IMG/VR virus record: IMGVR_UViG_3300029249_000109
Span: 47,352 to 111,351 of that record
DNA: 64,000 bases
From: a virus
Direction: 5' to 3' (one strand)
Positions 1 to 18,079 of the stretch are shown here, piece by piece. Position 1 is the first letter of the stretch; each line of letters opens with the position of its first letter. Under the pieces are notes generated by a model that saw only the letters and a list, made by a program, of their open reading frames with translations, searched no databases and was not told the origin of the DNA. The position numbers were made by a program, and so were the translations under genes.

Positions 1-1600
1 GCGATATAATAATTGTAGGACAGGGAAGAGTAACGGTCTTTGCGACATCCGGATTTCTCCTTGACCCTGATTACGTTGTTTACTGTTTCGTAGCCCAAAT
101 TGACAAGCTCATTGACTGCAAGCCCGGTGTTGATATACGGCATTTGTAGAGCAGCTCGTTCGCTGGGCGACATTTTATCGTATCCTTTATACAACTTGCG
201 TAGCTGATCTTCGCAGCTATACTCGCTTTGTAAAAGGTGGATTCGCCCCTGTTGGAAACCACTACGCAAGCCAATGGCTACATCGCTGTTAAATTGAGAA
301 CTGCCCATAATGGCCCAAATAACCTTCCTTGCGGCCTTATCAGAACAACGATCGGCAATTTCTGTATTGTTACAACAACTAATGGCGGGATAGGTTTCAC
401 CAGTTTCAGGATCATAGATATCACGCATGAGCAGGTCAATCAGCGGAATACCAACTGAGCGGGCGTCGATGCCGAGATAGTCACAATTAAAATATTCAAA
501 GTAGCGGCGCAGCTTTAGCGCTTGGTCCTGAACACTCATACCTTCAACGTTCTCTGAGTAAACGAAATTACTCGTATAACGTCCAGATTTGTTTGGTATC
601 ATACAATTTAGAAAGATGCTTGTTGCGTCATTGTCGTTTTTCTTGGAACTCATCAGTGCAATATCAGCGGTCAAAATGCGGATTTCTCCGTTTTTCTTCT
701 TTGGAACATCTGTTGCAATGGGGGAGAGCACGATATTTGGCGCATAGTATGCTTTTTCGATAACGCGAGTTTTATTGATATCATCGAATTGGAATAACCC
801 GCCTTCAATTGATCCAATCCATTCGGTCAACATTTCCATGGAGAACTTCAGATCAGAAAAACTTGATTCGGACATTTCATCTTCGACAGCCTCTTTCAAC
901 AACAAACCTTCTTTAATACTCATTCTGTAATCAAAAGCACAACAATAATATTTTTTACTACGATCAATCATATTTACAAAATAGTCCTTACATTTTTCGT
1001 AGCTCCAGTGATTCTGGAACCATGCAGAACTAAGATAAAACTCTTGATTTCGTTCAGCCATGTGTTTATATTCTGGTTTGTCTAAATATCCGGGATGGCG
1101 AACAATATTTAGGAATTTTTTCAAAACCATATTGATGATATCTTCATCCATCATGCGGTATTCGTCGACCAAAATTAAATTTGCTCTCGCACCACGCGCA
1201 GAGTCGGTAGCCGTCACAACTTTAACGTAACTGCCATTTCTGAATATAATTTCTGCTTTCTGATTATTGATATCGACTTTTTTGATTTCGGATTGTAATA
1301 AAGGACTGTTTGGTACAAGTTCCTTCATTATTTTTTCGTCCAAGATATTGATAGATTGTGTTCGCACTTTACATGCAATAATACACTTCGTGCCCGGCCA
1401 CAATAGGCATTTAATCACAATGAAGACAGCGGTCAGAAAAGATTTGCCCAGACCGCGAGCGGCAATAAAGCAGAATCCTGTGCTTCGAACCATTAAATAC
1501 AACAAAATCTGCTGAAATAATTTCAAATTCAGATTCAAATATTCCTTGGCGAAACGTTGCGGATTTTTTCTATAATATCCACAATACCAAGCAACTGCAT
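1..1600 (-). CDS. terL: Terminase large subunit, C-terminally truncated by the window edge (start ATG at 1600, runs past position 1)
   Basis: Not in the ORF track because it has no in-window stop. Translation starts MNAVAWYCGYYRKNPQRF and contains FCFIAARGLGKSFL (Walker A-like) and ANLILVDEYRMMD (Walker B), as in PBSX/Terminase_6 ATPases. The same frame stays open for at least 533 codons. Confidence 0.8.
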
Positions 1601-1657
1601 TCATTATCTTTTCTGATTTACTATTTGCTACTTCTTTGTCTGTTAATTTTTCTTTTG

Positions 1658-2656
1658 TCAAGGAGAACCACCGCCCTCACTGATACCAAAGATGGTTTCA
1701 CGTAAGCTGGTGTCTGCGGTGTCGTCTTCTATAGCTTCTGGTTTATGTGCGGTATACTTTTCCATTTCCTCATCAAATTCGGCTTGATATGGATTGTTTA
1801 AATGAAACATTTTTAAAAGTGAACCAAGTACCCACACTCTAAAATACTTTCCAATCCCATCGACATCCTGCCATTCAGGCGCGGGTTCTGGAATTGGTCT
1901 CTCTTCCTCCCATTTTTGAATCAATGTTCCGAAAGTGTTAGTCTCAGCCAGTGCGTTATCGTTCGTCTGATTCGGCTTAATCTGAGCTGAACCCATTAGA
2001 TTCTGAAGGTTGTCGTTTGCCTCTTTTATTTTCTTTGTGTCGCCGGTAGCGTCTGCCTTTTCACAGTTAAGTTCGCCTTTTGCAATGCGCTTGAAAAGAA
2101 TTTCCTGTGCGGCTGTTTTACACTCGTGGCGCGTAATAAGATTCTGATAGTGATCCTCAAGGAATAAATAGTCCTGCTCCTCCAAACCTGCACCCCAGAA
2201 CCTAATCATTTTTTGGGTGACTTTTGTGTTGCCAGTACGACCAGCAGCCAGCGCATCTTTCTTCTCCTGATCTAATGTATCGTCATAAGACTTCCCAGCA
2301 TGCTGTCGCATATTAAGGCGTCCCATATATGTGTTAATTTTTGGAGAACCTGGAGTAGAGTGATCTGCGGCCTCAAGAAGCCCATCACAGTAAAACATAT
2401 CAAACAGCATAGCTAGTCGCTTAATTGCTTCGTTCTCGTCTCCGTATTTCTTTACATAGAAGTTGAACATTTCTTCTTTGCATTCATTACACCACGGCAG
2501 ATATCCATCGTTGCCCATAAACCACTGACTTTGCGTCTTCGAGAAATTTCCCTTGCGCACATCATAGATCTTTCCGCAGCACATACATTTGCCACCACTC
2601 CATGAGGCAGGGACCTTAATGCGTGGCGATTTCTTTTCAACGGCAGTTCTGGCCAT
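1658..2656 (-). CDS. Hypothetical Cys-rich protein immediately upstream of terL (positional candidate for the small terminase or a packaging accessory)
   Basis: 332-aa ORF with CMCCGK...CNEC zinc-finger-like cysteines. No recognised domain; the role is inferred from position only. Confidence 0.5.
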   Translation of the reverse strand: MARTAVEKKSPRIKVPASWSGGKCMCCGKIYDVRKGNFSKTQSQWFMGNDGYLPWCNECKEEMFNFYVKKYGDENEAIKRLAMLFDMFYCDGLLEAADHSTPGSPKINTYMGRLNMRQHAGKSYDDTLDQEKKDALAAGRTGNTKVTQKMIRFWGAGLEEQDYLFLEDHYQNLITRHECKTAAQEILFKRIAKGELNCEKADATGDTKKIKEANDNLQNLMGSAQIKPNQTNDNALAETNTFGTLIQKWEEERPIPEPAPEWQDVDGIGKYFRVWVLGSLLKMFHLNNPYQAEFDEEMEKYTAHKPEAIEDDTADTSLRETIFGISEGGGSP

Positions 2657-2897
2657 AGTCCTTCACCACCGTTCCGTCATCTGACATATTGTCGAAGCGA
2701 TACTTGATATCGTCCCACAGCTTTAAGATTTCATTGAGCTTTTTTGTTTTGTGGAACTTTGTATATACAGATCCCGTAGTTGGATGCTCACCAATCTCTT
2801 CATAGAAAATTCCCATTGCACGAATAAAGAATGCACAACGGCGAGAATAGCAGTAGAAGTAATCGCCTCCTAAATCTTTATGAAATTTTTCTTCCAT
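2637..2897 (-). CDS. Hypothetical protein (86 aa)
   Basis: ORF whose end overlaps the start of the downstream gene by 20 nt. Confidence 0.45.
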   Translation of the reverse strand: MEEKFHKDLGGDYFYCYSRRCAFFIRAMGIFYEEIGEHPTTGSVYTKFHKTKKLNEILKLWDDIKYRFDNMSDDGTVVKDYGQNCR

Positions 2898-3060
2898 TTT
2901 TGAATTCTGGAACCTCCTTTACAATTTAATTTCATGGGTACAGGTATGCGAGTCAAACGCATCTAAGATTTCTCTTTTGTCTCAGCTTATGAGGCTGGCC
3001 AGCACACCGGCGCTGTCACCTGCGACATATAGGGCTCGCCTTTTCGGACGAGCCGTTTAT

Positions 3061-3240
3061 TTAACTATTGTTGAATTTATCTGACAATTCTTTTAGGATC
3101 TGATAAATCGTTTTCAATTCGCCATCATCGTTTCTAATATCGATCCCTAGTTCTTTAAGACTGGTTTCAATGTCCTTATCGGGACCAGCATAAACAGACT
3201 CGTGTTTGGAACCTGCCAAAACAGAACAAATATCGTCCAT
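3061..3240 (-). CDS. Small hypothetical protein (59 aa, just under the ORF-track length cut-off)
   Basis: ATG at 3240 preceded by gaggagaattatt. Translates to MDDICSVLAGSKHESVYAGPDKDIETSLKELGIDIRNDDGELKTIYQILKELSDKFNNS. Confidence 0.45.
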   Translation of the reverse strand: MDDICSVLAGSKHESVYAGPDKDIETSLKELGIDIRNDDGELKTIYQILKELSDKFNNS

Positions 3241-3302
3241 AATAATTCTCCTCTACAATATAAAAACGCCCTGAGCAGTTAAGCCCAGAGCGTCTAAATC
3301 TG

Positions 3303-4514
3303 TTAAATTACTATCTTTGCTGGTTTTTCAAGCTTCACATCATACAGACAGGTCAAACCATCATCAGCAATAACAGCTACGGCTTGCTGTGGGATATCAT
3401 TCTTACGAATACCAACAGCATAACTATCAGTGCCGCATACGCAGCCGCTTTCAATAACCTTTGTCCCGTGCACAGTTGTCATTCCGTTTGTGTGGCGACG
3501 TCCGAGGAAGACTAAATCAATCGGCTGTTTCACCATCATGGTCAAGTGTTCGACAACGTTGGCAGGGGAGTCTTTATCTCCATGTGCATACATCACCAGA
3601 CTATTACGAGCTTTAAATCCGCCAAACGTAGGATCGAGTTTCTCTGTTTTTACTTCAATGCCAGCCAGATTCTGTAGCCGTGCCTTCATATAGAATGGGA
3701 TCAGCGCTTCGAGTTCGTCTCCGGCAACTTGTTCGTCCTTGTTGGGAAAAACCCGTGAATGATTACCACTGACTGAATACACATCAATATGTTGGCATAC
3801 TTCGTACAGTTCTGCTACAAAGTTGCTCACCAACTCTGCGGCCGTCATAACCTGTTCGATACTATTTTCATTGTTCTGAACACGAGTGTTAATATGAATA
3901 TGACCATTGATTAGATCACCAAGCAACAGCACGTGAATCTTTTCAGCGGCGTGCCGTTCGACGATATTAAACACCTGAGCGACATAACTTTCTAGCCGCG
4001 CCTTTAAGATCTCTTTGTCAAACTTGTTCCATGCAGAATCAATACCGGCACCAGTATGTAAATCCGACAAGCACACAATCACATCATGTCCGCTGCCTTC
4101 ATACTGAACAACATTCAAGAAGTCGTTCTTATCGTAGGGTGCAACAGCACTTGTAATCAGTTCCTTGATAGATTCAGCACGCGCAATGTTACGATAAACC
4201 TTATTCGTTGCCGCTCGTTCGTCACGCATCTTGATTTGTTCGATCTTCAAGCGCTGCAGCTTGTCTGCCACAGTGTCTCTACACATATGTTCAAGTGCAT
4301 AATCGTAGCCGGCCTTCCATGACTTATATTTCTTTCGATAGGCGCACTCCCCAAAATTGGAGTTTGTAGCTTCATTCAAAACAACGGCAGCTTGATCCCA
4401 CGTCAACTTCCGCTCGGAGCACGCATTGCCAATGCGAATCATATACTCGTCAAAAGATTCATCGTCCGCCTTTTTAAATTCATTCTTTTTAATTTCGTCC
4501 ATTCGGCACCTCAA
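3303..4514 (-). CDS. Calcineurin-like metallophosphoesterase (SbcD/Mre11-type or Ser/Thr phosphatase-like)
   Basis: Motifs DVIVCLSDLHTG, LLLGDLINGH, GNHS and AHGD match the metallophosphoesterase signature D-x-H...GD...GNH(D/E). It has an N-terminal extension of about 150 aa. Confidence 0.75.
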   Translation of the reverse strand: MRCRMDEIKKNEFKKADDESFDEYMIRIGNACSERKLTWDQAAVVLNEATNSNFGECAYRKKYKSWKAGYDYALEHMCRDTVADKLQRLKIEQIKMRDERAATNKVYRNIARAESIKELITSAVAPYDKNDFLNVVQYEGSGHDVIVCLSDLHTGAGIDSAWNKFDKEILKARLESYVAQVFNIVERHAAEKIHVLLLGDLINGHIHINTRVQNNENSIEQVMTAAELVSNFVAELYEVCQHIDVYSVSGNHSRVFPNKDEQVAGDELEALIPFYMKARLQNLAGIEVKTEKLDPTFGGFKARNSLVMYAHGDKDSPANVVEHLTMMVKQPIDLVFLGRRHTNGMTTVHGTKVIESGCVCGTDSYAVGIRKNDIPQQAVAVIADDGLTCLYDVKLEKPAKIVI

Positions 4515-4729
4515 ATATCAAAATTCGAATTAGTCCGACTTGTGCGGTTTAGTTCCCGTAATGCTTCTTCGGCTTCAACATTGCCTGGTAGCTGAGTAAG
4601 AACAGACTTGATCTCTTCAACATACCAATGATGAACAGTACGTGTAATATGAACATTTGGGATTACTTTGCGAAGATATTCTGCCTCGCGCTTATTGATT
4701 TCTACCATAAATAATAATCTCCTTTGCAA
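4511..4729 (-). CDS. Hypothetical protein (72 aa)
   Basis: ORF with a 4-nt overlap with the upstream gene. Confidence 0.45.
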   Translation of the reverse strand: MQRRLLFMVEINKREAEYLRKVIPNVHITRTVHHWYVEEIKSVLTQLPGNVEAEEALRELNRTSRTNSNFDI

Positions 4730-4776
4730 TTTAAATTAAAGAGAGCAATTCTCTTTCATATATTAAGAAAATAAAG

Positions 4777-5589
4777 TCAATTTCGGTCAATGACTCTATT
4801 GGCGTTCTTTTTTGCAATACGTAGCTTTTCTTTTTTTGCCCCGCACTCTTTGCAATATAGACTTGCGTTCGGTCTTTTTGCGATATATTTTTCACCACAC
4901 ACTGTACAGTAGCATTCTTTTGGATCGAACAGTTCTTGTGCCACTTTACTGAGATTCAGTCGATTGTTTTCAAGCGTCACATTGAAGGTGAACGCGATTA
5001 TGTCATCTTTATCAAGTGCAAAATTCGGATATGTATATAAGCAGCCAATATCATCCGTTCCAGTGCGATTGAGAAGATGATACACGTCAGATAATTCGTA
5101 CATTCCGCGAACTGTGTTGTATCCGTCGTCCCAGTTGGGTCCACCGTGATACATGATTTCCGTCTGTTCGTCAAAACATTTTCCAAACCGCTTCATCTTA
5201 AAATCAGTGTCTAATGCCACCGTGTCGCTGCCATATAATCGGCAGAAGAAGATAATTCCAAGCAAGACTCTAAGCTGTGCCCAGTTGATATGATAGCGGC
5301 GGCGAGCGTCGGTGATATAATCTAAATCTTTCTGATATAAAACAACTTGATGTACGTCAAGTAGTGGCGCATTATTTTTGTGCCCTCTGCTGAATGCTTG
5401 AATCAGATGGCTACGATCATAACTGACAGATTCGGGGTTTCGCATACGTTCATAATAGATAGTCGCACACTCAATAGGGGAGAGGCTTGTCCTCTTCAAT
5501 AGATTTCGCAACATCAGGTTTGACTCGTGATAGTATTTCCAATTGTCAAGAAGCATATTTTCGTTGCAATAAAATGTCGTATAAGCCAT
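4777..5589 (-). CDS. Hypothetical protein with a C-terminal CxxC...CxxC zinc ribbon
   Basis: 270-aa ORF whose C-terminus reads CTVCGEKYIAKRPNASLYCKECG. Confidence 0.55.
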   Translation of the reverse strand: MAYTTFYCNENMLLDNWKYYHESNLMLRNLLKRTSLSPIECATIYYERMRNPESVSYDRSHLIQAFSRGHKNNAPLLDVHQVVLYQKDLDYITDARRRYHINWAQLRVLLGIIFFCRLYGSDTVALDTDFKMKRFGKCFDEQTEIMYHGGPNWDDGYNTVRGMYELSDVYHLLNRTGTDDIGCLYTYPNFALDKDDIIAFTFNVTLENNRLNLSKVAQELFDPKECYCTVCGEKYIAKRPNASLYCKECGAKKEKLRIAKKNANRVIDRN

Positions 5590-5728
5590 TTAACCTCCTA
5601 TTACAAAACATCCATAGATAAATTTTCTGGTACCAATATAGTAGAGAACCGAAATATGCATCAATAAAAGAATAAGGGTTTGATTTCCAATAAAGGATCT
5701 GCTCAGCTATATTCATTGTAATACCTAC

Positions 5729-6013
5729 TTATTCAATTGGCGTAATTTCGCCATCAACATAACGACAAAGTTGTCCATGTTCGTTATAGTATGGAGCCAT
5801 ATATCCACTATATAGCCAATAGTATACAACTCTTGTGTTCTCATCATAAGCAAGTTCCGTATTGGAAATACTGTACAAAGAGCTTCCATTATAAACAGAT
5901 TTATCGCCTACATTGTTTTTGCGAGGAATAGATGCCCAAATCCCAATACCTAAGCATAAACATAGTGTAGCTATCAAAGCGATAATCGTTGCCTTAAAAC
6001 ACCGATAACTCAT
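5729..6013 (-). CDS. Small membrane or secreted protein
   Basis: 94 aa with an N-terminal hydrophobic segment (IIALIATLCLCLGIGIWASI). Confidence 0.5.
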   Translation of the reverse strand: MSYRCFKATIIALIATLCLCLGIGIWASIPRKNNVGDKSVYNGSSLYSISNTELAYDENTRVVYYWLYSGYMAPYYNEHGQLCRYVDGEITPIE

Positions 6014-6270
6014 TCTGTTTTATCCTCCCAGCCCACAGATTCATGAGCGAATTTTTGAATACGTTGAGCTTCGTCCCAGCTAAACATCATCTCGCCGCAA
6101 TTCGCACATTTCATGGCGGTTACATTTATCGCTTCGAGTTCCTGCCCACGGCAGTGGAATTTATATGTCAGTCCATTTGTCAGGGTCATTGTTCCTCCAC
6201 ACTTGGGGCATTCCATCTGCTGCGGAACCTCATCCTGCTTAGATTTCTTTTTCTTGAATAGATTAAACAT
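6010..6270 (-). CDS. Zinc-ribbon protein (YgiT/MqsA-like CxxC...CxxC)
   Basis: Start moved to the internal Met (MFNLFKKKK), which follows ggaggttcttc. Contains CPKCGG...CANCGE. Confidence 0.5.
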   Translation of the reverse strand: MFNLFKKKKSKQDEVPQQMECPKCGGTMTLTNGLTYKFHCRGQELEAINVTAMKCANCGEMMFSWDEAQRIQKFAHESVGWEDKTE

Positions 6271-6478
6271 GAAGAACCTCCATTCTGTGCAACGTCTCTT
6301 TTTCACATTCCTTGCAAAATACAAACCTCATATCATTTTGGATGTTTTTCAATTCATCCCATTTATATTGTGCAATGCTATGATACCATCCGCATTTTTG
6401 ACAACGAATCCCAACTTCTGTAATATCGTTTCCTTTCATATCGAAAAGTCTTAGTTCTAATAGCTTGAATTTCATCAT
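6263..6478 (-). CDS. Zinc-ribbon protein
   Basis: 71 aa containing CQKCGW...CKECEKE. Confidence 0.5.
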   Translation of the reverse strand: MMKFKLLELRLFDMKGNDITEVGIRCQKCGWYHSIAQYKWDELKNIQNDMRFVFCKECEKETLHRMEVLHV

Positions 6479-9042
6479 TTCACTCTTGCCTCGTAAATTC
6501 TCGGTTCAGCCAAACTATATCGTTGACCAAGGTATTCATACTTGCCATTCGGATCGTGAACTGGCAACTGTACGGGAACTGGTTTGATATTTTCAACTAC
6601 GCCAGCGCCAGCCATGTGCCACAAGAATTTTTTGAACTTGTTGGGGTATTTTTCATAGCACAGCACGACTAGAATATTAGCCAACTCACGAACGTCGGGG
6701 CAGATCAGCTTGCACTTGTTACGATACACGTTATAGATTGCTTGCCAGTTGGTTTCATAGGTCTTTGCTTCTTCTTTCGTCATGATGCCTTCAAGCTCTT
6801 TACGATAAAGTTTCCAGTTTTTGGCTTTCTTTTCTAGTTCTAACTGATTCTTGCGATATTTATTAAAGTCCAGAAAGACGGCTTCGATCTCATCAAATAC
6901 ATCTTGATCATAACCGATTTCCGAATCGTACATTATGTGCCAATCAAAACTGCCAGCGGGCTCTTTATGCCAACGGACTCCACGCTCCCAACGCTCAAGA
7001 TCCATACAAAGAAGATTCATATTACTATGTGCATTACTAAGATTATGTTGCCGTGCATAATAGGGTCCAGCATATTTCATAAATCTAGGCAATGGACGGC
7101 CATATGATGCTATATTTCTAGGAACTGAAAATTTCACTCCTGTTTTAGAAAAATCAATTTCTTTACCCATACAGATACTCAAAATATCTATATAGTTTTC
7201 GTACTCTTTTTTTGTTTTTTCTGTTGTTGCAACCTTATTGTGAAACGCACATCCGTAATTAGCATACTCGCCAATTTGGCTTTTTAATCCACGTAAAACA
7301 CAATCAAGCCGATTTTGTAAATTATCTAATTGAGCAAGCGCAGTGATTTTATCTTGAGTATCGCAGACAATTCTTGCGTTTCTGTCAATACCTTTTAGCA
7401 TAATATCAGAATCAATTACCAGCACGAGATCCCCATCGAAATCCGCGCCATTTAATCTCTGTGGGGTAATTGACTTTACGTTTATCATTGCTACATTTTC
7501 AAGATGACTACAATACTTTTGAGTGAGTTCGTTATTAACACCTTTTAGGACTGCATGTTCTGCAGACGCCAAATGAGGGTTTCGATCCACTACACGCCAT
7601 CCAGATGCCGCACCTCTTCTGTCAAAAGTATAAAATTCATCAGATTCAAGACATCCAACAATCGGAAGACCAGCAGCTCCTTCCATGAATGCAATTAAAT
7701 CAGGTGCTAAAAACTTATATGTAGCATCAAGAAATAATTTTCCACATTTAAAATCATTTCTATATTTATCAAGAAGCGAATGAATATATGCTTTTACACT
7801 TGATTCATGTATCATTTCAGGATTTCGTGCAAGAGCCGCAGCATAGTGAGTTAATGGATTTACGTCGTCCGCCGTTAATCCTAAAAAACAATTTGTATGA
7901 AAAATTCCATCTTCAGTGTTAGAAGTGATTTTCTGATACCAATCAACGCTTTTATCTGCTAGGTGCTTAAACCCGTCATAAGGCAAATCCAACGTCACCA
8001 GTATCTGGTAATTGCTCCTTGTTTCAAGCGGTTCATTTTCAAATTGGTAGTTCCATTTTGCAACACCCATTGCATGGTTATATTTTAAAAGTAGTTGCTT
8101 ATATCTTTCCCAATCGGCAATAGTACCATCCCGTTTAAAATACTTGACGCCTTTAAACATGCTTTCTCCAGCAATAAACATTGGTTCGGCATCACGAGCT
8201 ACAGAATGCTTTACGCCCCAAATATCAGTGATTTCAGTAACGCCACGCTCTTCATAGAACGAAACGTAGTCCATTTCATTGAAAACACCCTTGAAATAAG
8301 GCATACGGAAAATCATGCTGCTGATATGTTCAGAAGTATTTAGCTTTTTTTCAATCTGCCGCATTAAAGAGGGATGAGCTATACCACAACCATCGAAGGC
8401 ATTGATTTCATAATTTATGGTATCTTCTTTAATATCTTTCTGTACCCATTCACGTTTTTTACCAGTCTTTTTGTCAACAAACTCCATTTTTTTATCACAG
8501 AGGCATTTGATTTTTTGATCTGGAATAGTGAGCATGTGATCTGGCACTACAATGATTTTTGGAAACCATTCATTAAGGGGAATACAATGACAACTTGACA
8601 TCATCAGCCCACGATAAGCCATCCATTTAGAAAGTACGACAGGTTTTTCAGAAAATGATACTTCCATACTGATTCGTCTATCAAGTTCAGGCCAAATATG
8701 AGATTCAACCATCGAGAAGATACATTGGCGAACCATGCTTGCGCTTCGTTCTCCAAAGTTAAATTTCCGCTTTCCAATTTTAGCTCCGTGTTGCATAAGA
8801 TGTTTAACCACATCGGGTTTATTTTGAGCACCTGTAGCGTCTATATAGATCAAAAACGGATTATAGTCAGAATCATCATGCGACACCAACCTAATCTGGC
8901 GAAGTAACATTGTATCAGATTGAAGTACTTGATATTGAATATCGTTTGCAACCTCTTCAGGAATATTAAAATTATATTTTATAAATAAACTCAAAGGGTA
9001 TTTACGTACTGTGTAATGCTTAGGAGAAAACATCTGTATCAA
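6475..9042 (-). CDS. Large protein carrying the catalytic Mg-binding motif of multisubunit RNA polymerases (NGADFDGDLVLV); candidate single-chain YonO-like double-psi beta-barrel RNA polymerase
   Basis: 855 aa. The motif NGADFDGD closely matches the universally conserved NADFDGD of the RNAP beta-prime subunit. The size is similar to YonO of SPbeta (about 840 aa). No other polymerase family motifs (DTD, DYSQIELR, T7-like) were seen. Confidence 0.4.
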   Translation of the reverse strand: MIQMFSPKHYTVRKYPLSLFIKYNFNIPEEVANDIQYQVLQSDTMLLRQIRLVSHDDSDYNPFLIYIDATGAQNKPDVVKHLMQHGAKIGKRKFNFGERSASMVRQCIFSMVESHIWPELDRRISMEVSFSEKPVVLSKWMAYRGLMMSSCHCIPLNEWFPKIIVVPDHMLTIPDQKIKCLCDKKMEFVDKKTGKKREWVQKDIKEDTINYEINAFDGCGIAHPSLMRQIEKKLNTSEHISSMIFRMPYFKGVFNEMDYVSFYEERGVTEITDIWGVKHSVARDAEPMFIAGESMFKGVKYFKRDGTIADWERYKQLLLKYNHAMGVAKWNYQFENEPLETRSNYQILVTLDLPYDGFKHLADKSVDWYQKITSNTEDGIFHTNCFLGLTADDVNPLTHYAAALARNPEMIHESSVKAYIHSLLDKYRNDFKCGKLFLDATYKFLAPDLIAFMEGAAGLPIVGCLESDEFYTFDRRGAASGWRVVDRNPHLASAEHAVLKGVNNELTQKYCSHLENVAMINVKSITPQRLNGADFDGDLVLVIDSDIMLKGIDRNARIVCDTQDKITALAQLDNLQNRLDCVLRGLKSQIGEYANYGCAFHNKVATTEKTKKEYENYIDILSICMGKEIDFSKTGVKFSVPRNIASYGRPLPRFMKYAGPYYARQHNLSNAHSNMNLLCMDLERWERGVRWHKEPAGSFDWHIMYDSEIGYDQDVFDEIEAVFLDFNKYRKNQLELEKKAKNWKLYRKELEGIMTKEEAKTYETNWQAIYNVYRNKCKLICPDVRELANILVVLCYEKYPNKFKKFLWHMAGAGVVENIKPVPVQLPVHDPNGKYEYLGQRYSLAEPRIYEARVK

Positions 9043-9049
9043 TTCTCCT

Positions 9050-9406
9050 TTACTTTAATTTATTGTGAAAGTGGTCATCACTATCGGAATCACCATCATC
9101 ATCATCCCACTCGCTATCGCACACAACGTAGTAACAATCAATTGCACTGCTGATATAAAACACAAGAAGAGGAGTAATGACCAGCGCCACGAATAACACT
9201 TTACCTACAATTTGATAGGTCAAGTAGAAGATCACCAGCGTCTCAGCAGCGTGCAGTATCCAATCAAACCAGTCTTTGCTATTGATAAAAGCCGATACCG
9301 CAATAGTCAAAGGAATATTTGTACTCATCATGCCATGCTGGCCGTCTTCGTCTTGTTGGCTGCCTGGCTTCTTAGGATCTTTATCCACTGTTGCATTCCT
9401 CCTCAC
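9050..9406 (-). CDS. Membrane protein with an acidic C-terminal tail
   Basis: Two predicted TM helices, then DSEWDDDDGDSDSDD. Confidence 0.5.
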   Translation of the reverse strand: MRRNATVDKDPKKPGSQQDEDGQHGMMSTNIPLTIAVSAFINSKDWFDWILHAAETLVIFYLTYQIVGKVLFVALVITPLLVFYISSAIDCYYVVCDSEWDDDDGDSDSDDHFHNKLK

Positions 9407-9579
9407 TCTTCATCATCCCACTCGCGGCGCTGCTTGTGGGATTTTTTATTATATTTAGACGCCGGAGCCTCCTGCGCTTTTTCGATCTCCTGCATAAACT
9501 GGTTTTCAATCATGCGCTGTTTGCGGGCTGCTCTCATATATGTACTCTTAGAATTCTTATCTCGTTTGCGGTCACTCAT
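9403..9579 (-). CDS. Small basic protein
   Basis: Start set at MSDRKRDK, which follows gaggagg. Lys/Arg-rich sequence. Confidence 0.4.
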   Translation of the reverse strand: MSDRKRDKNSKSTYMRAARKQRMIENQFMQEIEKAQEAPASKYNKKSHKQRREWDDEE

Positions 9580-9877
9580 TGCCGTAATCCTCCTCACTGT
9601 CATTATCGTATTCTTCCAACCCATATAACTTATGATATAAATATCGGGTCAAAGAAGGGGACATAGGTGTACAGTCTTCCATCCAGAGCGTGTCATACAG
9701 TGAAGCGTCACCAATAACTTCCTGCCAGTCCGCGTATACTTGAATTGCGTCAATGATATCTTCTACCGTGACGCTATAATCGCGCACCGCATCAACTACG
9801 GCGAATCCAATATTAAAAATATCCTGTTTTGAAAATTCTTCTTTCATAATAGTCCTCCTTATAGAAGCGATTTGCAC
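9572..9877 (-). CDS. Hypothetical acidic protein (101 aa)
   Basis: ORF only. Confidence 0.45.
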   Translation of the reverse strand: MQIASIRRTIMKEEFSKQDIFNIGFAVVDAVRDYSVTVEDIIDAIQVYADWQEVIGDASLYDTLWMEDCTPMSPSLTRYLYHKLYGLEEYDNDSEEDYGNE

Positions 9878-10083
9878 CGAAGTGGCTTCTTCATTTTCTC
9901 AATCTGTTCTATTGCTTCTGCAACCTGTTCCTGCAGTATGTTTATTTGATTTTGAATATCTGAGATATTGTCTTTTGTAGCAACATAATCGTTTAATCGC
10001 ATTATTGGATCTGGTACACTAATTCTTGAAATATCTTCTTCTAATGCGGTTGCGTAATATCCATCATTTATATTGATGTCCAT
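9859..10083 (-). CDS. Hypothetical protein ending in -RCKSLL (member of the C-terminal tag set)
   Basis: 74 aa; C-terminus ...KKPLRCKSLL followed by the stop codon. Confidence 0.55.
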   Translation of the reverse strand: MDININDGYYATALEEDISRISVPDPIMRLNDYVATKDNISDIQNQINILQEQVAEAIEQIEKMKKPLRCKSLL

Positions 10084-10095
10084 TTGGTATCTCCT

Positions 10096-10338
10096 TTACA
10101 GTAAACTGTGACATACGAATGATTTCTTTTTCTTTATTTTAATACTTGCTTCAGGACATCGCTCACGAAAAAAATCATATATTGCTTTATCTGAAATGTA
10201 ATCAAGCCCAACGAACTGTCCATCCGAAATTAACAATTCGTCATCATAAGACCTGGTACTGTTTCCGCGAGCGACCGCATCTATCAGAACTCTTGCTTCT
10301 TCTTCTGTCCATTCAATAATCATAAAAGGCTCCTGCAA
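10096..10338 (-). CDS. Hypothetical protein ending in -VCHSLL (tag set)
   Basis: 80 aa; C-terminus KKKKSFVCHSLL. Confidence 0.55.
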   Translation of the reverse strand: MQEPFMIIEWTEEEARVLIDAVARGNSTRSYDDELLISDGQFVGLDYISDKAIYDFFRERCPEASIKIKKKKSFVCHSLL

Positions 10339-10404
10339 ATAAACGGTTTCGGATTTCTAGTCAAATGCACAATTTGATCGTATATTTCTTTATCGGTTCT
10401 CCCC

Positions 10405-10533
10405 TCAAAATCCATAGTATTCAAGGTTTGGTTTAATTTTGTTTTCATCTATATCAAGTGCAAATGGATAAAGATTTTTATATTCTCTGACGAAACCTTT
10501 AATCATACTGAGTTCATCAATCTCGTCTCTCAT
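10405..10533 (-). CDS. Small protein (42 aa) with ATGA start/stop coupling to the upstream gene
   Basis: ATG at 10533 overlaps the TGA of the 10530..10937 gene and follows ggagtctatt. Translates to MRDEIDELSMIKGFVREYKNLYPFALDIDENKIKPNLEYYGF. Confidence 0.35.
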   Translation of the reverse strand: MRDEIDELSMIKGFVREYKNLYPFALDIDENKIKPNLEYYGF

Positions 10534-10937
10534 AATAGACTCCTACATCTGAGTGGATGTCTACTGGCTCGAATAATATCTTCCAAGCATTCTGGTACGA
10601 CAGAAAACTTTTTAAACAAATCAAACGTATTGCGGTACATTAAATCATCTATATTTATCTGCCGCATTTTATTTTCACAGATATATCGAACATCAGCTTC
10701 TCCATACAACTTAGTGAATAATTTGCAATATTCAAACGACTTGGCCAATCCAAGATATTTATCAAAGTAGAACATAGTACACTGTGCGTTCATTTTACTA
10801 TAGTCAAACTTTTCACGGAATTCATCTGGCGATTTGCATATTACGATTACTTTGCGGTGCTTTTGTACAGTGTCTAAATTATCATACCAAGAACATACGG
10901 CATCGTATTTTTCTGGACTTACAAATAAAATTCTCAT
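10530..10937 (-). CDS. Hypothetical protein ending in -RCRSLL (tag set)
   Basis: 135 aa; C-terminus RASRHPLRCRSLL. Confidence 0.55.
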   Translation of the reverse strand: MRILFVSPEKYDAVCSWYDNLDTVQKHRKVIVICKSPDEFREKFDYSKMNAQCTMFYFDKYLGLAKSFEYCKLFTKLYGEADVRYICENKMRQINIDDLMYRNTFDLFKKFSVVPECLEDIIRASRHPLRCRSLL

Positions 10938-10968
10938 TACTAACTCCTTCTGCGACGCTGCGGCACTC

Positions 10969-11385
10969 TTATAATAAGCTGTGACATACTAGATTCTTTT
11001 TATTTCGTTCATACCAAGGTGCTGTGATTTTTACGATACGATCGAAAGTCCATGTATAGTCAAGCTTAATAGGATGCGCTAAATCCAAAAGGTCGTCCTT
11101 ATTAACAAGTCGGTAATAATCCACATCATTGAGCCAATCAAATTCCTTCGCCAGCCGTGTTGCCATATCGCTCATGGAATTATAGGTATATCCGGGTCCA
11201 AACCATATCTGATCGAATATTTTTGAACCATTATCGGCTTTTAAATACCATGCTCTAAAATCAAGATACGATTTGAATGGCTTGACCCATACTGTCTCAT
11301 AATTGTTTAATGAGATGAAGATTCCATTTTTGGCATTATAATTTGCAGAAGTCAACAGGGCAGCAGCTCTAGCAATTACATTCAT
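10969..11385 (-). CDS. Hypothetical protein ending in -VCHSLL (tag set)
   Basis: 138 aa; C-terminus NKKNLVCHSLL. Confidence 0.55.
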   Translation of the reverse strand: MNVIARAAALLTSANYNAKNGIFISLNNYETVWVKPFKSYLDFRAWYLKADNGSKIFDQIWFGPGYTYNSMSDMATRLAKEFDWLNDVDYYRLVNKDDLLDLAHPIKLDYTWTFDRIVKITAPWYERNKKNLVCHSLL

Positions 11386-11726
11386 AGTAAACTCCTACAA
11401 ACAAACGATTTTTTAGATTGCATTGTATACTTGCTAACCAAATCAAGATATCGCTTATAAATTAGTTCTGCAGCGTCACCTTCAATAGTTTCCATCCGTA
11501 ACCCAGATATGATTTCGACTTTGATAAAATCTTTTGGATTAAGAGTAAAAGTTAAATCCCAGTCATAATGTATATATCTGCGATCCATATCAACATGAAT
11601 CATTACTGAATCTACTTTATGTCCACGCTCTTCACTAAGTTCTGCATATAATTTATGCCGAGCCAGGTCTAGTATTTCCTTTTCGTTCTTTTTAAAATTA
11701 CTTGTTCCAAAAATATCTGTTGTCAT
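11382..11726 (-). CDS. Hypothetical protein ending in -VCRSLL (tag set)
   Basis: 114 aa; C-terminus QSKKSFVCRSLL. Confidence 0.55.
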   Translation of the reverse strand: MTTDIFGTSNFKKNEKEILDLARHKLYAELSEERGHKVDSVMIHVDMDRRYIHYDWDLTFTLNPKDFIKVEIISGLRMETIEGDAAELIYKRYLDLVSKYTMQSKKSFVCRSLL

Positions 11727-12190
11727 AGTAAACTCCTACAGGTCAGTTGCACCGTTGGTCTTCCTATGGTTGGATCATCAGCGTCCTCGATTTCTGGATT
11801 TAGTGCAACTTCAGATGGGCCATATGTAGCCATAGAACAAGCGGCAATTAGATTGGAATTTATAACACGCTTCATACATTCATCAATATCGTCGATCACC
11901 ATGGGTTTTCTTCTGGCGGGACCAAACATCGCATGTTGAAAATTAGTAGCATCAATAATATGGATCACAATGGTGTCGTTCCATGTTTTGACCTTGATAT
12001 CATGCAGCCTGTCATTATATCCAATATATTCATATTCACCATTAGAATCATGGCAGATTTGCATTATGATCGTTACAATGTGTTGAATAGAACTCAGAGC
12101 GGGTACAATAATATCGCAGTCATTTTCAATCGCGTATTTACATATTCGATAGGTACGACCGCTGCCGCGCGGAGCTATAATTTTTTCCAT
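11723..12190 (-). CDS. Hypothetical protein ending in -TCRSLL (tag set), with a possible P-loop-like GSGRT near the N-terminus
   Basis: 155 aa; N-terminus IIAPRGSGRTY; C-terminus TVQLTCRSLL. Confidence 0.55.
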   Translation of the reverse strand: MEKIIAPRGSGRTYRICKYAIENDCDIIVPALSSIQHIVTIIMQICHDSNGEYEYIGYNDRLHDIKVKTWNDTIVIHIIDATNFQHAMFGPARRKPMVIDDIDECMKRVINSNLIAACSMATYGPSEVALNPEIEDADDPTIGRPTVQLTCRSLL

Positions 12191-12207
12191 AATGCTGAGC
12201 CTCCCAT

Positions 12208-12492
12208 TTAATCAAATAATTGCACGCATAGTTTTAAAGCTAAATCAATGATCCACTTGGCATCGTCATTGCGCAGGACTTTGTAAATGTTCCCGATAAA
12301 TGCAAATACCGCTGGGCCTTTTTCTTTGTATAAATTGTATTCGACTCCGCGTCTGCCTCCTAAAAAATCCATTAGAAATCCAGAATCGTCTTTCAGTCCA
12401 AGTAATAAAATGTAGTCATCGAAGTGTCTCGACATCTTATAAGTCAAATACTCATCAATCGCCCAAAATGTATTCTCTTTAGTTTCATTCAT
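12208..12492 (-). CDS. Hypothetical protein (94 aa)
   Basis: ORF only. Confidence 0.45.
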   Translation of the reverse strand: MNETKENTFWAIDEYLTYKMSRHFDDYILLLGLKDDSGFLMDFLGGRRGVEYNLYKEKGPAVFAFIGNIYKVLRNDDAKWIIDLALKLCVQLFD

Positions 12493-12496
12493 TTTT

Positions 12497-12925
12497 TTAT
12501 GTCAGCATCCTTTTACCAAACGGTGTAATCAAATATCGATGTAGGGCTGCGTCTTCCAGCTCTTTTTGTAACTGATGGAGCTTAGTCATATTATCGAGAT
12601 AAGAGGGAAGCGATTTTTCTACAATTTCATAGATCAAAGCGTTTATCTGTAACCATTCTTTCATCGTCATTCCACGGTGCACCATAGGACGAATCATCCA
12701 ATCAATCTGGTCGCGGATATAATCAATAGAGAAAGGATCAATTTCGTGTAGCATACTCATTCTTTCTATATAGTTCTTAAATAACTCCACTGTCTGTTCG
12801 GCTTCGGCTTCTCGGTAGCGGTCACACAATTCTTTCGCGAGACTATCAATGGCGTCATAGTTCCATCCGTCGGTAGGAGACCAATAGTCCGCTACTTTCA
12901 GGCCGCTTATTTTTACTTCTATCAT
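12497..12925 (-). CDS. Hypothetical protein (start moved to an internal Met so it no longer overlaps the phoH-like gene)
   Basis: ATG at 12925 follows gaggagtcacgcaag (MIEVKISGL...). Confidence 0.45.
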   Translation of the reverse strand: MIEVKISGLKVADYWSPTDGWNYDAIDSLAKELCDRYREAEAEQTVELFKNYIERMSMLHEIDPFSIDYIRDQIDWMIRPMVHRGMTMKEWLQINALIYEIVEKSLPSYLDNMTKLHQLQKELEDAALHRYLITPFGKRMLT

Positions 12926-12938
12926 CTTGCGTGACTCC

Positions 12939-14285
12939 TCAATCGAGTAGATCGGCCAGACGGGCAGTCTCAGAGCGTTCCGTAATAGGTAAGTAAACCG
13001 TTCCAAAGCGTTCATTTCCTGTCAGCTTATCAATCAACTTTTGAATGCCGTTATTTCGTTCGAAAGCTACATCATCAATCTGTCTCAAATCACCGTTAAT
13101 CCACAGTGTGCTGCCATCACCAACTCGACCAATCAATAACTGAATATGCTGCTTAGTGAGGTTTTCCGCTTCACTGCAATAAATTATAGATCGATTGAAG
13201 CTGCGTCCACGAATAAAGCCGAGCGGCTGAATCTCTACCCATCCATCAGTGATAGCTCGCTCCAATGCAACCTCGCCGCCAAGACAGTCGGCTAGAATTG
13301 CTGCGAATGGATATACCTTTTCAAGCATAGAGCCGGGAAGGAAGCCAATTTCTTTTGTGTCTTTGACCTCGATATTGTTGCGAACCCAAACGATCTTGTC
13401 GTATTTGCCCTTTTCGATCAGATCAACAGCGTGATTAACCATCAGGAAGTCTTTGCCGCTACCATACACACCAAGAAGCAGTTTGATTGTGATGTCGTCG
13501 TTCTGAAGTAGGTCAAAGGCGAGCTTTTGCTGATTGTTGAGCGGCTTGATCTTACCTGAGTAGGCGGTGTTCAGGTTCTTGTATTTAATAGGTACATAGC
13601 GTGAACCATCCCATCGAAGCCCCGCTGTGTTACCGTCTGCGTCTGCATTTGGAATCAATACATAACCGTTTGTGGGTGTATCAAACAAGTTCTTTTGCTC
13701 GATATCTTTGGAGTAGGCCATTGCCAGTGCTTCCTCACCACCCTGATCCATGGGCACCTCTGTCCAGCCAGTGTAGTCATTGTGGGCTCCGCCGCGATCA
13801 AGAGATAGTTCACAGGGCAGTTTCATAATCCGTTGTGCAAGATTGAAGCAGCTTAGGTCACTGGTAACAAAACAGAAGGAATCAACATCAGCGGTCGTTT
13901 TGGCTACGAGTTCATCTGCGGCCGACTTTTCAAACACTCCCGCCCTGGTCTGAATCTTCTCTGCGTCTTCTTTCTTTTCAATCAGCTCATTCAGATACCA
14001 TCGGGCAGCAGCCATAATCGTTCCGTCGTTGTTGTCTTTAGCTGGGATATCATTCAGGATCGAGAGCAGCTGTGGGTAGTCAATAGATACTACTGTATAC
14101 GCTGTGGGATGTTCGGCGAGTAGGCGAGTGACTGTGCGGGCCTTAGCTTTGGTAGCTTCATCCTTCTTTCCACTGGTCTTGATATCTTCCAGCTCATAGA
14201 GAGTGATGTCAGCAATTAGGAACTGCTGTGCAAGTAATGTGTCGGGCGGGAGATCTAGCAGGGCAGAAGTATCGTAAAATTTCAT
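12939..14285 (-). CDS. phoH: PhoH-like ATPase with an N-terminal PIN domain (YlaK-type)
   Basis: N-terminal PIN-like MKFYDTSALLDLP. PhoH motifs GVYGSGKDFL (P-loop), GFLPG, IRGRSFNRSIIYCSEAENLT and GDLRQID. Confidence 0.8.
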   Translation of the reverse strand: MKFYDTSALLDLPPDTLLAQQFLIADITLYELEDIKTSGKKDEATKAKARTVTRLLAEHPTAYTVVSIDYPQLLSILNDIPAKDNNDGTIMAAARWYLNELIEKKEDAEKIQTRAGVFEKSAADELVAKTTADVDSFCFVTSDLSCFNLAQRIMKLPCELSLDRGGAHNDYTGWTEVPMDQGGEEALAMAYSKDIEQKNLFDTPTNGYVLIPNADADGNTAGLRWDGSRYVPIKYKNLNTAYSGKIKPLNNQQKLAFDLLQNDDITIKLLLGVYGSGKDFLMVNHAVDLIEKGKYDKIVWVRNNIEVKDTKEIGFLPGSMLEKVYPFAAILADCLGGEVALERAITDGWVEIQPLGFIRGRSFNRSIIYCSEAENLTKQHIQLLIGRVGDGSTLWINGDLRQIDDVAFERNNGIQKLIDKLTGNERFGTVYLPITERSETARLADLLD

Positions 14286-14394
14286 ACCGATAAATCAACA
14301 TCCTTTCAGAGAATTAAGATTGTTTGATTATTTACTACTGCTGTTTACAAGGCGATAAAAATGATCGTAGCAAGATGGGCGATTCTTGATACGC

Positions 14395-14410
14395 AAACAG
14401 AAGAAGTAAA
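14395..14410 (+). promoter_or_regulatory. Copy of the recurring 16-bp motif AAACAGAAGAAGTAAA in the divergent intergenic hub
   Basis: Exact 16-mer. A partial inverted arm ctgttta lies at 14341-14347. Confidence 0.4.
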
Positions 14411-16832: not shown

Positions 16833-17329
16833 CACACACAGTAGTCGGACACCCTTTCGGGGTCGCACCGTTCAAAGCGGCCCCTTTCCAACGCGGTATG
16901 CGTAGCGTCTTAGAGTGTGGCGCATTTTGTACGCTCAGAAAAGAGGTTATTACTGCATTCTAAATGAAATCTAAGAAAGGAACCCGCCGTGTATGAAATC
17001 AAAAATAATAGCTAGTGTCCTGAGCATGACGTTAAACTGCTTATGTCCGCACAATGCTATGAAATAATGGACAATACCATTATATGCGGGTATACGCAGG
17101 GACAAACCATAGCATTCCACCTAAGTCCTGCACTACCAAAGGGCTGAAAAGGCAAGTGCAAAATATATAAATGGCCCTGCTTACATGCAAGTTTATGAGC
17201 GTAGCCTTGTATGTATGAAAGAGGTATGGCAACCAAAAATGCCCGCTCACCCCTGTAATCAGGATGCCTTGACGTGGCGCAGGGGCTTTAAACTAAGAGC
17301 CTGAAAGAAAAGAGAAAGGAGTTATCTCT

Positions 17330-17914: not shown

Positions 17915-17937
17915 TAACCAACCACAACGCCAACTCA

Positions 17938-17972
17938 AACGCCGCTAGGCTAAGTGCTGGCGTTTTCTTTTA
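17938..17972 (+). terminator. Rho-independent terminator candidate
   Basis: Stem aacgcc/ggcgtt with a 15-nt loop, then ttttcttttacctctttt. Confidence 0.5.
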
Positions 17973-18079
17973 CCTCTTTTCTTATACCGTGCGATTGGCG
18001 GTCACGGGGAAGATAGTATACCGCTACCAGTACGCTCATCAACGGACATTTACACACACACACACGAAAGGACAAGAAA

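Follow-up and report, generated by a model that had tools for sequence, protein, structure and literature searches.

The window (the whole 64,000-nt stretch of viral DNA that was analysed) has a phage context, with a terminase, a tail fibre and 13 tRNA genes. The initial annotation had described an 855-aa protein with an NADFDGD-like motif at 6475-9042 without giving a strand; this reading frame is confirmed and lies on the minus strand, with the motif, NGADFDGDLVLV, occupying residues 531-542 (nt 7417-7452, minus strand). The true start is probably the ATG at 9033, because a database protein 99% identical to the window polymerase (P0001) is 852 aa long, the consensus sequences of homologs start at the Met of this ATG, and the Shine-Dalgarno GGAG at 9045-9048 is 2 nt from the TTG and 11 nt from the ATG. 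The features of the locus are collected in Table 1. Elsewhere in the window, stop-codon reassignment behind the fragmented ORF map at 17-40 kb was considered and rejected, as the standard code is coherent and no recoding was meaningfully better.

Table 1. Features at and around the polymerase gene (window coordinates; DPBB, double-psi beta-barrel).
Feature	Position	Strand	Remarks
Start of packaging and structural (late) cluster	1-2897	minus	
YonF-like large terminase	1-1661	minus	N-terminal 553 codons, cut by window edge; BLASTP YonF 2.7e-146
YonG-like gene	1658-2656	minus	BLASTP YonG 3.1e-49
86-aa ORF	2637-2897	minus	late cluster
tRNA-like cloverleaf element	2935-3024	minus	between terminator and packaging genes
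Intrinsic terminator hairpin	3264-3295	minus	13-bp stem then T-run; directly 3' of YonJ-like gene
YonJ-like exonuclease gene	3303-4514	minus	BLASTP SPbeta YonJ 4.7e-20; phrog_284 exonuclease
270-aa protein	4777-5589	minus	C-terminal Zn-ribbon and basic tail; resembles YonO C-terminus
YonO-like single-chain two-barrel RNA polymerase gene	6475-9042	minus	maximal ORF, 855 aa, TTG 9042
Probable polymerase CDS	6475-9033	minus	852 aa from ATG 9033
DPBB-A (beta-prime-like)	7408-7650	minus	residues ~465-545, approximate boundaries
Mg-binding triad D534/D536/D538 (DPBB-A)	7429-7443	minus	
R487; P489 (DPBB-A)	7582-7584; 7576-7578	minus	
DPBB-B (beta-subunit-like)	8158-8430	minus	residues ~205-295, approximate boundaries, AF2 strand pattern
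D217; R246; K251 (DPBB-B)	8392-8394; 8305-8307; 8290-8292	minus	
Upstream part of polymerase operon	9050-14285	minus	supported by PHROG matches, ORFs and the gene order of L003 and L008
Run of small genes	9050-12492	minus	seven end in C-x-S-L-L
PhoH-like gene	12939-14285	minus	in polymerase operon
Inverted pair of purine-rich 16-mer	14331-14410	14331-14346 minus, 14395-14410 plus	between promoter and phoH
Putative sigma-70-type promoter	14424-14452	minus	TTGATA-17-TATAAT, 11/12 matches; top-scoring promoter-like site in 1-18000

Upstream of the polymerase gene, the promoter-like site at 14424-14452 is conserved in the related loci L003 and L008 and is the probable promoter from which host RNA polymerase reads the phoH-to-polymerase operon. 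The C-x-S-L-L C-terminus seen in the small genes of this operon is common to 13 small proteins. In L003 the pair of 16-mers and the promoter are arranged as in the window, while L008 keeps the promoter and has an inverted pair of different sequence. The inverted pairs of the 16-mer bracket or overlap sigma-70-type -35/-10 hexamers and, because they are found at such host-type promoters, the 16-mer is probably a repressor operator. It had initially been proposed as a cognate promoter or regulatory element of the phage enzyme; the first part was rejected as very unlikely, since the 16-mer sits at sigma-70-type hexamers and is operator-like, while the second part stands for an element located upstream of the polymerase operon.

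Downstream of the polymerase, the YonJ-, YonG- and YonF-like genes follow in the SPbeta order and on the same strand, and the collinearity with SPbeta extends over five genes. The L003 ortholog of the YonJ-like gene carries the precomputed Pfam YonJ_N domain, and in L003 a 506-aa gene and then a YonD-like gene come next in the late cluster. The same gene order is present in L003, L008, L010, L012, PMBT24, TR-TP1 and 27 IMG/VR loci (viral contigs of approximately 18-150 kb), and polymerase relatives of at least 57% identity, these 27 included, have it in common. Directly before the packaging and structural genes, the polymerase gene thus holds a place that is conserved across many phages, and this fits a role in transcription.

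The element at 2935-3024 has an anticodon loop CUCAUAA, a C1xA72 mismatch and a C73-CCA end. Since the tRNA-clan covariance model gives it 31 bits (gathering score 47) and ARAGORN calls no tRNA at this place, yet its pairing covaries (91.5% of cells paired, 12 of the 25 pairs changing on both sides, a level that 0 of 500 shuffles reach), it is classified by these sequence criteria as tRNA-like and not as a tRNA gene. It is found at the same place in the 27 IMG/VR loci, and a terminator hairpin directly precedes it in 23/23 distinct genuine copies aligned; in the copies that carry a 59-aa cassette (the window included) this hairpin is the cassette's own terminator. The intergenic alignment across relatives contained no conserved late-promoter motif; conservation is present only among close relatives, where the conserved part is the tRNA-like element, and L010 (57% identical) shows no conservation in the non-coding stretch ahead of its packaging genes, where it has only a terminator.

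The polymerase matches Pfam PF05183 (RdRP) with 53.9 bits (E 1.7e-14, gathering score 23.8), its residues 77-666 aligning on profile positions 56-573 of 582, and the same family is carried by 120/120 homologs among the matches listed. PF05183 is the eukaryotic-type cellular RNA-dependent RNA polymerase, and the name describes its eukaryotic members. NCBIfam has no model for the polymerase, YonO or the neighbouring proteins. In tblastn against 2.3 Gb of phage DNA, yonO of SPbeta was matched at E 6e-14, together with genes of Goe11-14 that are annotated “yonO: DNA-directed RNA polymerase”, and pairwise BLASTP with YonO gave 3e-20 with 26% identity over residues 124-595, where DFDGD of the window polymerase is aligned to DNDGD of YonO. 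The superfamily of the polymerase comprises about 2,600 clusters, with relatives in Thomasclavelia, Enterocloster, Clostridium and Bacillus phages.

Eight residues of QDE-1 (D709, R738, K743, R962, P964, D1007, D1009 and D1011) are invariants of two-barrel RNA polymerases (PMC2919709). Their equivalents in the window polymerase (D217, R246, K251, R487, P489, D534, D536 and D538) are all invariant across 47 homologs and are identical in YonO, TR-TP1, PMBT24, C. botulinum phage D-1873 and L010, and the D-29-R-5-K spacing in DPBB-B equals that of QDE-1 D709/R738/K743. Neither the single protein nor the family profile had a significant match among PDB sequences, QDE-1 appearing only at E ~0.1 with its motifs in register; in local HMMER alignments to QDE-1 these are the DG.G, R....KG and DYDGD motifs. 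The AlphaFold (AF2) model of the polymerase (pLDDT 90.5, pTM 0.86) has a double-psi beta-barrel around DFDGD, which matches QDE-1, RDR2, crAss gp66 and beta-prime, and the second, beta-like barrel with conserved Arg and Lys is also found (R246 and K251, plus D217). Foldseek with this model retrieved RDR2 and QDE-1 (E 1e-22 to 1e-16), phage P32 gp64 (5e-6) and crAss gp66 (1e-3, TMq 0.20); the model also matches the Thermus phage gp62/gp64 polymerases and multisubunit polymerase barrels. The initial suggestion of a phage-encoded single-chain YonO-like two-barrel RNA polymerase is thus supported by YonO similarity, fold and catalytic residues, and the gene product is an unsurprising new member of the already known YonO type.

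That DFDGD could have arisen by chance in a protein that is unrelated or inactive would be arguable from a short motif and nothing else, but none of D534, D536, G537 and D538 varies among the 47 homologs (43-82% identity) and the PF05183 score exceeds its threshold, so the motif is not there by chance; with eight separate catalytic residues invariant in those homologs and a confident two-barrel model, this explanation is already refuted and its probability is practically nil. It is also highly improbable that the protein is a virion-packaged polymerase of the crAss-like gp66 or N4 type, injected for the transcription of the first genes after infection. Although the fold is common to both, which is all that was borne out of the initially proposed link to the crAss-like family, the virion-packaged gp66 is a giant of ~2,200 aa (2,166 residues for the chain in PDB), a size that the window polymerase does not have, and it has no significant sequence similarity to gp66, for which Foldseek gave no better than E 1e-3. 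Moreover, a host-type promoter with operators precedes the operon of the gene, an arrangement implying that the enzyme is made after infection or induction, and the characterised enzyme to which its sequence is demonstrably homologous, YonO, is produced on induction.

The explanation that we favour, and consider likely, is a two-barrel RNA polymerase of the YonO/QDE-1 clade acting as a DNA-dependent transcriber of late genes. The host sigma-70-type RNA polymerase would transcribe the phoH-to-polymerase operon from 14424-14452, gated by a protein bound to the inverted 16-mer operators just downstream. The phage enzyme would then act as a DNA-dependent RNA polymerase, in which the D534/D536/D538 triad and D217 would hold two Mg2+ ions while R246, K251 and R487 would bind the NTP, and the packaging, structural and lysis genes on the same strand would be transcribed by it, as by YonO in SPbeta. 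Several observations speak against this explanation. The sequence does not reveal the template specificity of the polymerase, and the eukaryotic RdRP profile fits it better than it fits YonO, which has no Pfam match; relatives in GenBank are annotated “RNA-dependent RNA polymerase”; identity to YonO is low and confined to the core, with no C-terminal Zn-ribbon and no HU/IHF-like gene downstream; and the comparison of relatives yielded no promoter motif for the enzyme.

Such an enzyme could be an RNA-dependent or dual-template polymerase like QDE-1 and RDR2, which instead of transcribing late genes from DNA would copy phage or host RNA, e.g., as a way of amplifying a regulatory RNA, of producing dsRNA or of overcoming a host defence. 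We find this quite unlikely, since YonO, the only characterised bacterial or phage member, is a strict DNA-dependent RNA polymerase whose activity is abolished when the aspartate triad is mutated, and which deletion and RNA-seq showed to be needed for 37 late genes of SPbeta (PMC5467207, Forrest et al. 2017). The matching phage two-barrel enzymes of known structure (crAss gp66, P23-45 gp64 and gp96) are DNA-dependent too, the RdRP annotations merely echo the Pfam family name, and the conserved gene position fits transcription.

It is likewise unlikely that the late genes are read by a modified host polymerase, even if some observations would agree with it: the structurally matching P23-45 gp64 reads early and some middle genes and leaves the late ones to the host RNA polymerase, the polymerase gene shares its operon with PhoH-like and exonuclease genes, and PMBT24 encodes a sigma factor as well. 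Against it stands the five-gene collinearity with SPbeta, where the late role was experimentally shown, and in the window the strong signals of sigma-70-type promoters that were identified sit outside the packaging block.

For the favoured late-gene role, we can speculate that the polymerase starts upstream of 3264-3295 and reads through the terminator into a tRNA-like leader. A fuller version, which we regard as unlikely, makes this the late switch of the phage group: the host polymerase would halt at the hairpin after the YonJ-like gene, while the YonO-like enzyme, without flap and lid and with little pausing (shown for YonO), would enter the cloverleaf, RNase P and RNase Z would excise it and free the packaging and structural mRNA, and the separate 270-aa Zn-ribbon protein would substitute for the domain fused in YonO. 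This protein resembles the YonO C-terminus in BLASTP at E 0.012 (15/42 identical), and the Zn-ribbon module is part of the polymerase chain itself in YonO and D-1873, whereas the window, L010 and PMBT24 have it on a protein encoded nearby; a fusion of the 270-aa protein to the polymerase (“Rosetta-stone”) was found in 0/32 homologs. The 270-aa protein is a weakly supported candidate for an accessory factor.

As for biology, the polymerase is a candidate and no surprise. The window polymerase clade is found in hundreds of contigs, and SPbeta-style transcription, with a single-chain two-barrel polymerase ahead of late genes, would be widespread in large phages of human-gut and other metagenomes. 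The public label “RNA-dependent RNA polymerase” is misleading for a dsDNA phage, and a corrected name is the practical annotation outcome. Because its sequences bridge YonO and the eukaryotic RNAi polymerases, the clade may be the nearest phage kin of the latter; being nearer to the eukaryotic RdRP profile than YonO, it can help to clarify the relationship between RNAi polymerases and phage enzymes, and it is also useful for finding the YonO-type promoter. A limited literature search found no post-2017 work on the YonO promoter or structure.

Compared with known systems, QDE-1 of Neurospora and plant RDR2 are 12-16% identical to the window polymerase; they use RNA templates (QDE-1 also ssDNA) and act in silencing, whereas the window gene belongs to a dsDNA phage and lies beside late genes. 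P23-45 gp64/P74-26 gp62, gp96 and phi14:2 gp66 have no detectable sequence similarity to it; P23-45 gp64 uses GC-rich promoters to serve early and middle genes, gp96 (a Thermus phage virion RNA polymerase) forms one chain with the tape measure protein, and gp66 is a virion protein of giant size. The gut Clostridia phage relatives are known by annotation alone: gp3 of the Thomasclavelia phages TR-TP1/TP2 (TR-TP1 gp3 39% identical over full length) is annotated “RNA-dependent RNA polymerase”, as are the ORF of Enterocloster phage PMBT24 (WDQ45559; the PMBT24 paper is silent on the gene) and those of the Enterocloster CB457/CB473 phages, which fall in the same clade as the window polymerase, and each of these genes precedes terminase, portal and capsid genes in the same orientation. 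The closest comparison is with YonO of SPbeta, a prophage of Bacillus subtilis. The window polymerase differs in a 12-residue insertion between D217 and R246, in reaching PF05183 and in lacking the C-terminal Zn-ribbon with its basic tail, of which the separate 270-aa protein has a counterpart. The HU/IHF-like gene (YonN in SPbeta) that lies downstream in SPbeta, PMBT24, TR-TP1 and D-1873 does not follow the polymerase gene in the window, where none was found among the ten ORFs flanking the polymerase scanned against Pfam. The window is from human gut metagenomes, and the relatives that have been isolated are phages of Thomasclavelia and Enterocloster and not of Bacillus. The likenesses are in size (839 aa in YonO, 852-855 aa in the window, both in the range of approximately 800-900 aa expected of a YonO-like single chain from a Firmicutes phage), in the order of a beta-like and then a beta-prime-like barrel with identical residues at all eight catalytic-site positions, and in gene position, both genes being followed in the same orientation by a YonJ/YonG/YonF (terminase)/YonD block.

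The window carries one long open reading frame on the minus strand (6475-9042), 855 codons when counted from a TTG, whose residues 531-542 (nt 7417-7452) read NGADFDGDLVLV; the initial annotation had noted both the frame and the motif, giving no strand. Translation more probably starts from the ATG at 9033, which yields 852 aa, because P0001, a database protein of 99% identity, has this same length, that methionine opens the homolog consensus sequences, and a GGAG ribosome-binding site (9045-9048) lies 11 nt from the ATG and 2 nt from the TTG. The sole Pfam match is PF05183, the "cellular RdRP" family (residues 77-666, 53.9 bits, gathering score 23.8), while in PHROGs the protein matched phrog_8308, of unknown function (7.5e-75). 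With tblastn, 40 of 50,697 phage records were matched, including a human-faecal contig (70% identical), the Thomasclavelia phages TR-TP1/TP2 (39% identity over the full length, labelled "RNA-dependent RNA polymerase"), Enterocloster phages, Clostridium phage D-1873, and SPbeta and its relatives. In the last group the match is yonO itself (E 6e-14), which Goe11-14 label "DNA-directed RNA polymerase". Pairwise BLASTP with YonO, the single-chain RNA polymerase of the Bacillus subtilis prophage SPbeta, gave 3e-20 at 26% identity over residues 124-595, with FDNDGD of YonO aligned with ADFDGD of the window polymerase. The superfamily is large: among 1.84 billion representatives searched with a profile, 2,622 clusters scored E <= 1e-3, of which 878 reached E <= 1e-30.

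It is already known that all two-barrel RNA polymerases have eight invariant residues in common, which in the eukaryotic QDE-1 are D709, R738, K743, R962, P964, D1007, D1009 and D1011 (Ruprich-Robert and Thuriaux, PMC2919709). In the window polymerase D217, R246, K251, R487, P489, D534, D536 and D538 are among the invariant columns of an alignment with 47 homologs of 43-82% identity, and a separate alignment showed identical residues at all eight positions in YonO, TR-TP1 gp3, the enzymes of PMBT24 and C. botulinum phage D-1873, and a metagenomic relative of 57% identity. The conserved Lys/Arg of a second barrel, resembling that of beta, were also found, in the motif FRMPYFKGV, and the D-29-R-5-K and R-1-P spacings equal those of QDE-1. 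The AlphaFold2 model built from the 47-homolog alignment is confident (mean pLDDT 90.5, pTM 0.86), and both the model and its Foldseek matches to two-barrel enzymes place a DPBB fold around DFDGD. The top PDB matches were maize and Arabidopsis RDR2 and Neurospora or Thielavia QDE-1 (E 1e-22 to 1e-16, TM 0.42-0.57), followed by phage P32 gp64 RNAP (5e-6) and crAss-like phi14:2 gp66 (1e-3); the viral structure library gave as best matches proteins of uncultured phages, likewise named RNA-dependent RNA polymerase. Chance resemblance of the motif is excluded. Membership of the crAss-like gp66 family, to which the initial annotation had also pointed, is ruled out by size and by the absence of sequence similarity, while its proposal of a YonO-like single-chain polymerase is upheld by the direct similarity to YonO, PF05183, the catalytic residues, the fold and the gene order.

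An RNA-templated or dual-template role, as in QDE-1, is still compatible with the sequence, since the window polymerase passes the PF05183 threshold and YonO does not, and since its beta-like barrel has the QDE-1 spacing; however, the characterised phage and bacterial two-barrel single-chain enzymes are all DNA-dependent, and transcription suits the conserved position of the gene. As an RNA polymerase YonO is strictly DNA-dependent and its aspartate triad is essential, 37 late genes of SPbeta are silent without yonO, and YonO-dependent transcription begins upstream of yonK (Forrest et al., PMC5467207). The SPbeta order is yonO, yonN, yonK, yonJ, yonI, yonH, yonG, yonF, yonE, yonD, and the block downstream of the window polymerase follows the same order as this late region (see the table), with the window genes at 1-16.9 kb on the minus strand. 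A 94-97% identical metagenomic contig (L003) runs on into a 506-aa gene and then a YonD-like gene. The order is retained in relatives with 57-82% identical polymerases and in 27 IMG/VR loci, and in PMBT24 and TR-TP1 the polymerase gene likewise has the same orientation as terminase and portal and lies 5' of them. The window polymerase would probably transcribe the packaging and structural genes, as YonO does in SPbeta; by analogy with P23-45 gp64, it may instead serve another temporal class.

Positions of features in the window
Feature	Positions	Strand	Remarks
Three small genes		minus	downstream of polymerase
270-aa Zn-ribbon protein	4777-5589	minus	downstream of polymerase
72-aa ORF	4511-4729	minus	downstream of polymerase
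YonJ-like exonuclease gene	3303-4514	minus	BLASTP to YonJ 4.7e-20
Strong hairpin terminator	3295-3264	minus	3' of YonJ-like gene
Small variable cassette	3033-3263	minus	between YonJ-gene terminator and non-coding element
Non-coding tRNA-like element	2935-3024	minus	upstream of 86-aa ORF
86-aa ORF		minus	between non-coding element and YonG-like gene
YonG-like gene	1658-2656	minus	BLASTP 3.1e-49
YonF-like large terminase		minus	first 553 codons, interrupted by window edge; BLASTP 2.7e-146
C-[KRH]-S-L-L stops	9859, 10096, 10320, 10530, 10969, 11382, 11723	minus	
C-[KRH]-S-L-L stops	34849, 41561, 42667, 42968, 43232, 45589	plus	
16-mer inverted pair	14331-14346 + 14395-14410		directly downstream of 14452 promoter
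16-mer inverted pair	27658-27673 + 27721-27736		flanks TTGACA-17-TAATCT (27684-27712)
16-mer inverted pair	59714-59729 + 59738-59753		overlaps TTGACT-17-TATAAT (59738-59766)
Further 16-mer sites	34867-34882, 61414-61429, 61564-61579		
Type-P5 twister ribozyme (Rfam RF02684)	22230-22320	plus	46.5 bits vs gathering 37.6, E 1.6e-6
13 tRNA genes, three clusters	29211-30340, 32554-33558, 62055-63584	plus	all exceed Rfam gathering score
NAD-salvage cluster (ribose-phosphate pyrophosphokinase-like, nicotinamide phosphoribosyltransferase, NAD synthetase)	47322-51011	plus	PHROG 1e-58 to 2e-163
Reverse-transcriptase-like or polymerase-like gene + integrase-like gene	39380-42391	plus	

The non-coding element folds as a cloverleaf of 90 nt in the window (short forms 76 nt, long forms 88-90 nt) and is found also in three loci of relatives (L003, L008 and L012) and in 27 IMG/VR loci (L013-L040 except L037), directly 3' of an intrinsic terminator and 5' of the 86-aa, YonG-like and terminase genes. 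The acceptor stem has 7 bp with a C1xA72 mismatch, and the cloverleaf ends in C73 and CCA; there is an A11:U24 pair, an anticodon loop CUCAUAA and, in most copies, a T-loop TTCGACT. ARAGORN made no call for the element, and against the Rfam tRNA clan it scored 31 bits, under gathering. Among 12 distinct sequences 91.5% of cells were paired and 12 of 25 pairs had two-sided changes, although few independent events lie behind these counts, the sequences being closely related with arms apparently swapped as blocks; the level was attained by none of 500 shuffles, and slid registers gave at most two two-sided pairs. Each of the 23 distinct genuine copies in the alignment has a terminator hairpin immediately 5' of the element, and the gap between them leaves too little space for a promoter. 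Speculatively, the window polymerase would read through this terminator, and the element may serve the late mRNA as a leader or in its processing; in YonO the flap and lid elements are absent and there is little pausing (PMC5467207).

The cassette between the YonJ-gene terminator and the element holds a 59-aa ORF (3061-3240) and its own terminator hairpin (3033-3054), with TATAT repeated at the junctions; L008 and several IMG/VR loci carry it, and L003-type relatives lack it. [quoted passage not shown] Two RNA matches lie there on the late-gene strand, DUF3800-VIII RNA (RF03075, 47.5 bits, above gathering) and skipping-rope RNA (RF02924, 29.6 bits, sub-threshold), at positions 15410-15475 and 16720-16829 of the SPbeta locus (NC_001884, minus strand).

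As for expression of the window polymerase itself, the top sigma-70-type site within 1-18 kb is TTGATA-17-TATAAT (minus strand, 14452-14424), directly upstream of a PhoH-like gene, the first in the polymerase operon. From this promoter to the polymerase gene no convincing minus-strand terminator was found, a weak hairpin within the gene itself (7995-8011) being the sole terminator-like site, and the sequence suggests that the polymerase is probably expressed through the host enzyme. The 16-mer AAACAGAAGAAGTAAA, with 13 matches in the window at up to 3 mismatches against 0.97 expected, is a genuine recurring motif, lone copies of which stand immediately 5' of ribosome-binding sites. In L003 promoter and inverted pair are arranged identically to the window, while the more distant L008 retains the promoter with an inverted pair of another sequence, which matches the co-variation of operators with their repressors. 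The 16-mer had been proposed as a promoter of the phage polymerase or a regulatory element; its placement at sigma-70-type promoters and ribosome-binding sites argues against the former, while the latter reading stands, and the motif is probably a repressor operator at host-type promoters, one of them that of the polymerase operon.

Across the window, 13 otherwise unlike small ORFs on both strands end in [KP]-x-x-[LF]-x-C-[KRH]-S-L-L-stop (12 of them 50 codons or longer, where chance would give 0.03), and seven of them are the small genes directly upstream of the polymerase. Since its Ser, Leu and stop codons differ by synonymous changes, the ending is conserved at the protein level as a C-terminal tag, which could serve in targeting, degradation or modification. 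At its C-terminus the 270-aa protein has a CxxC...CxxC Zn-ribbon with a basic tail, similar to the far end of YonO (15/42 identical, E 0.012); in YonO and the D-1873 enzyme the ribbon is fused to the polymerase, whereas in the window, the 57% identical relative and PMBT24 it is on the adjoining protein instead, and none of the 32 homologs of that protein is of the fused form.

The window belongs to a large phage genome and carries 13 tRNA genes, genes for NAD salvage, and single genes resembling those of tail fibres and integrases; apart from two fragments it is absent from the phage collection. The NAD-salvage cluster resembles the NAD-reconstitution pathways with which phages counter defence systems that deplete NAD. 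The reverse-transcriptase-like gene matches phrog_2825 (5.5e-31) and phrog_1423, "Reverse transcriptase" (3e-14), with the integrase-like gene (phrog_216, 1.5e-46) about 1 kb downstream; paralogous small genes with an MDYKYKVG N-terminus and a C-x-S-L-L end flank the pair. At 37471-39075 (plus) two same-frame open frames of 304 and 229 codons are split by one TAA (38383-38385), and elsewhere in the window there is no evidence of stop-codon reassignment.

Descriptions of YonO-like proteins from Firmicute phages and genomes date from 2003-2012, and their characterisation followed in 2017. The clade of the window polymerase is abundant in gut metagenomes and is systematically labelled RdRP in annotations, and the PMBT24 genome paper passes over its member. 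Judged by sequence similarity, this clade sits between YonO and the eukaryotic enzymes.
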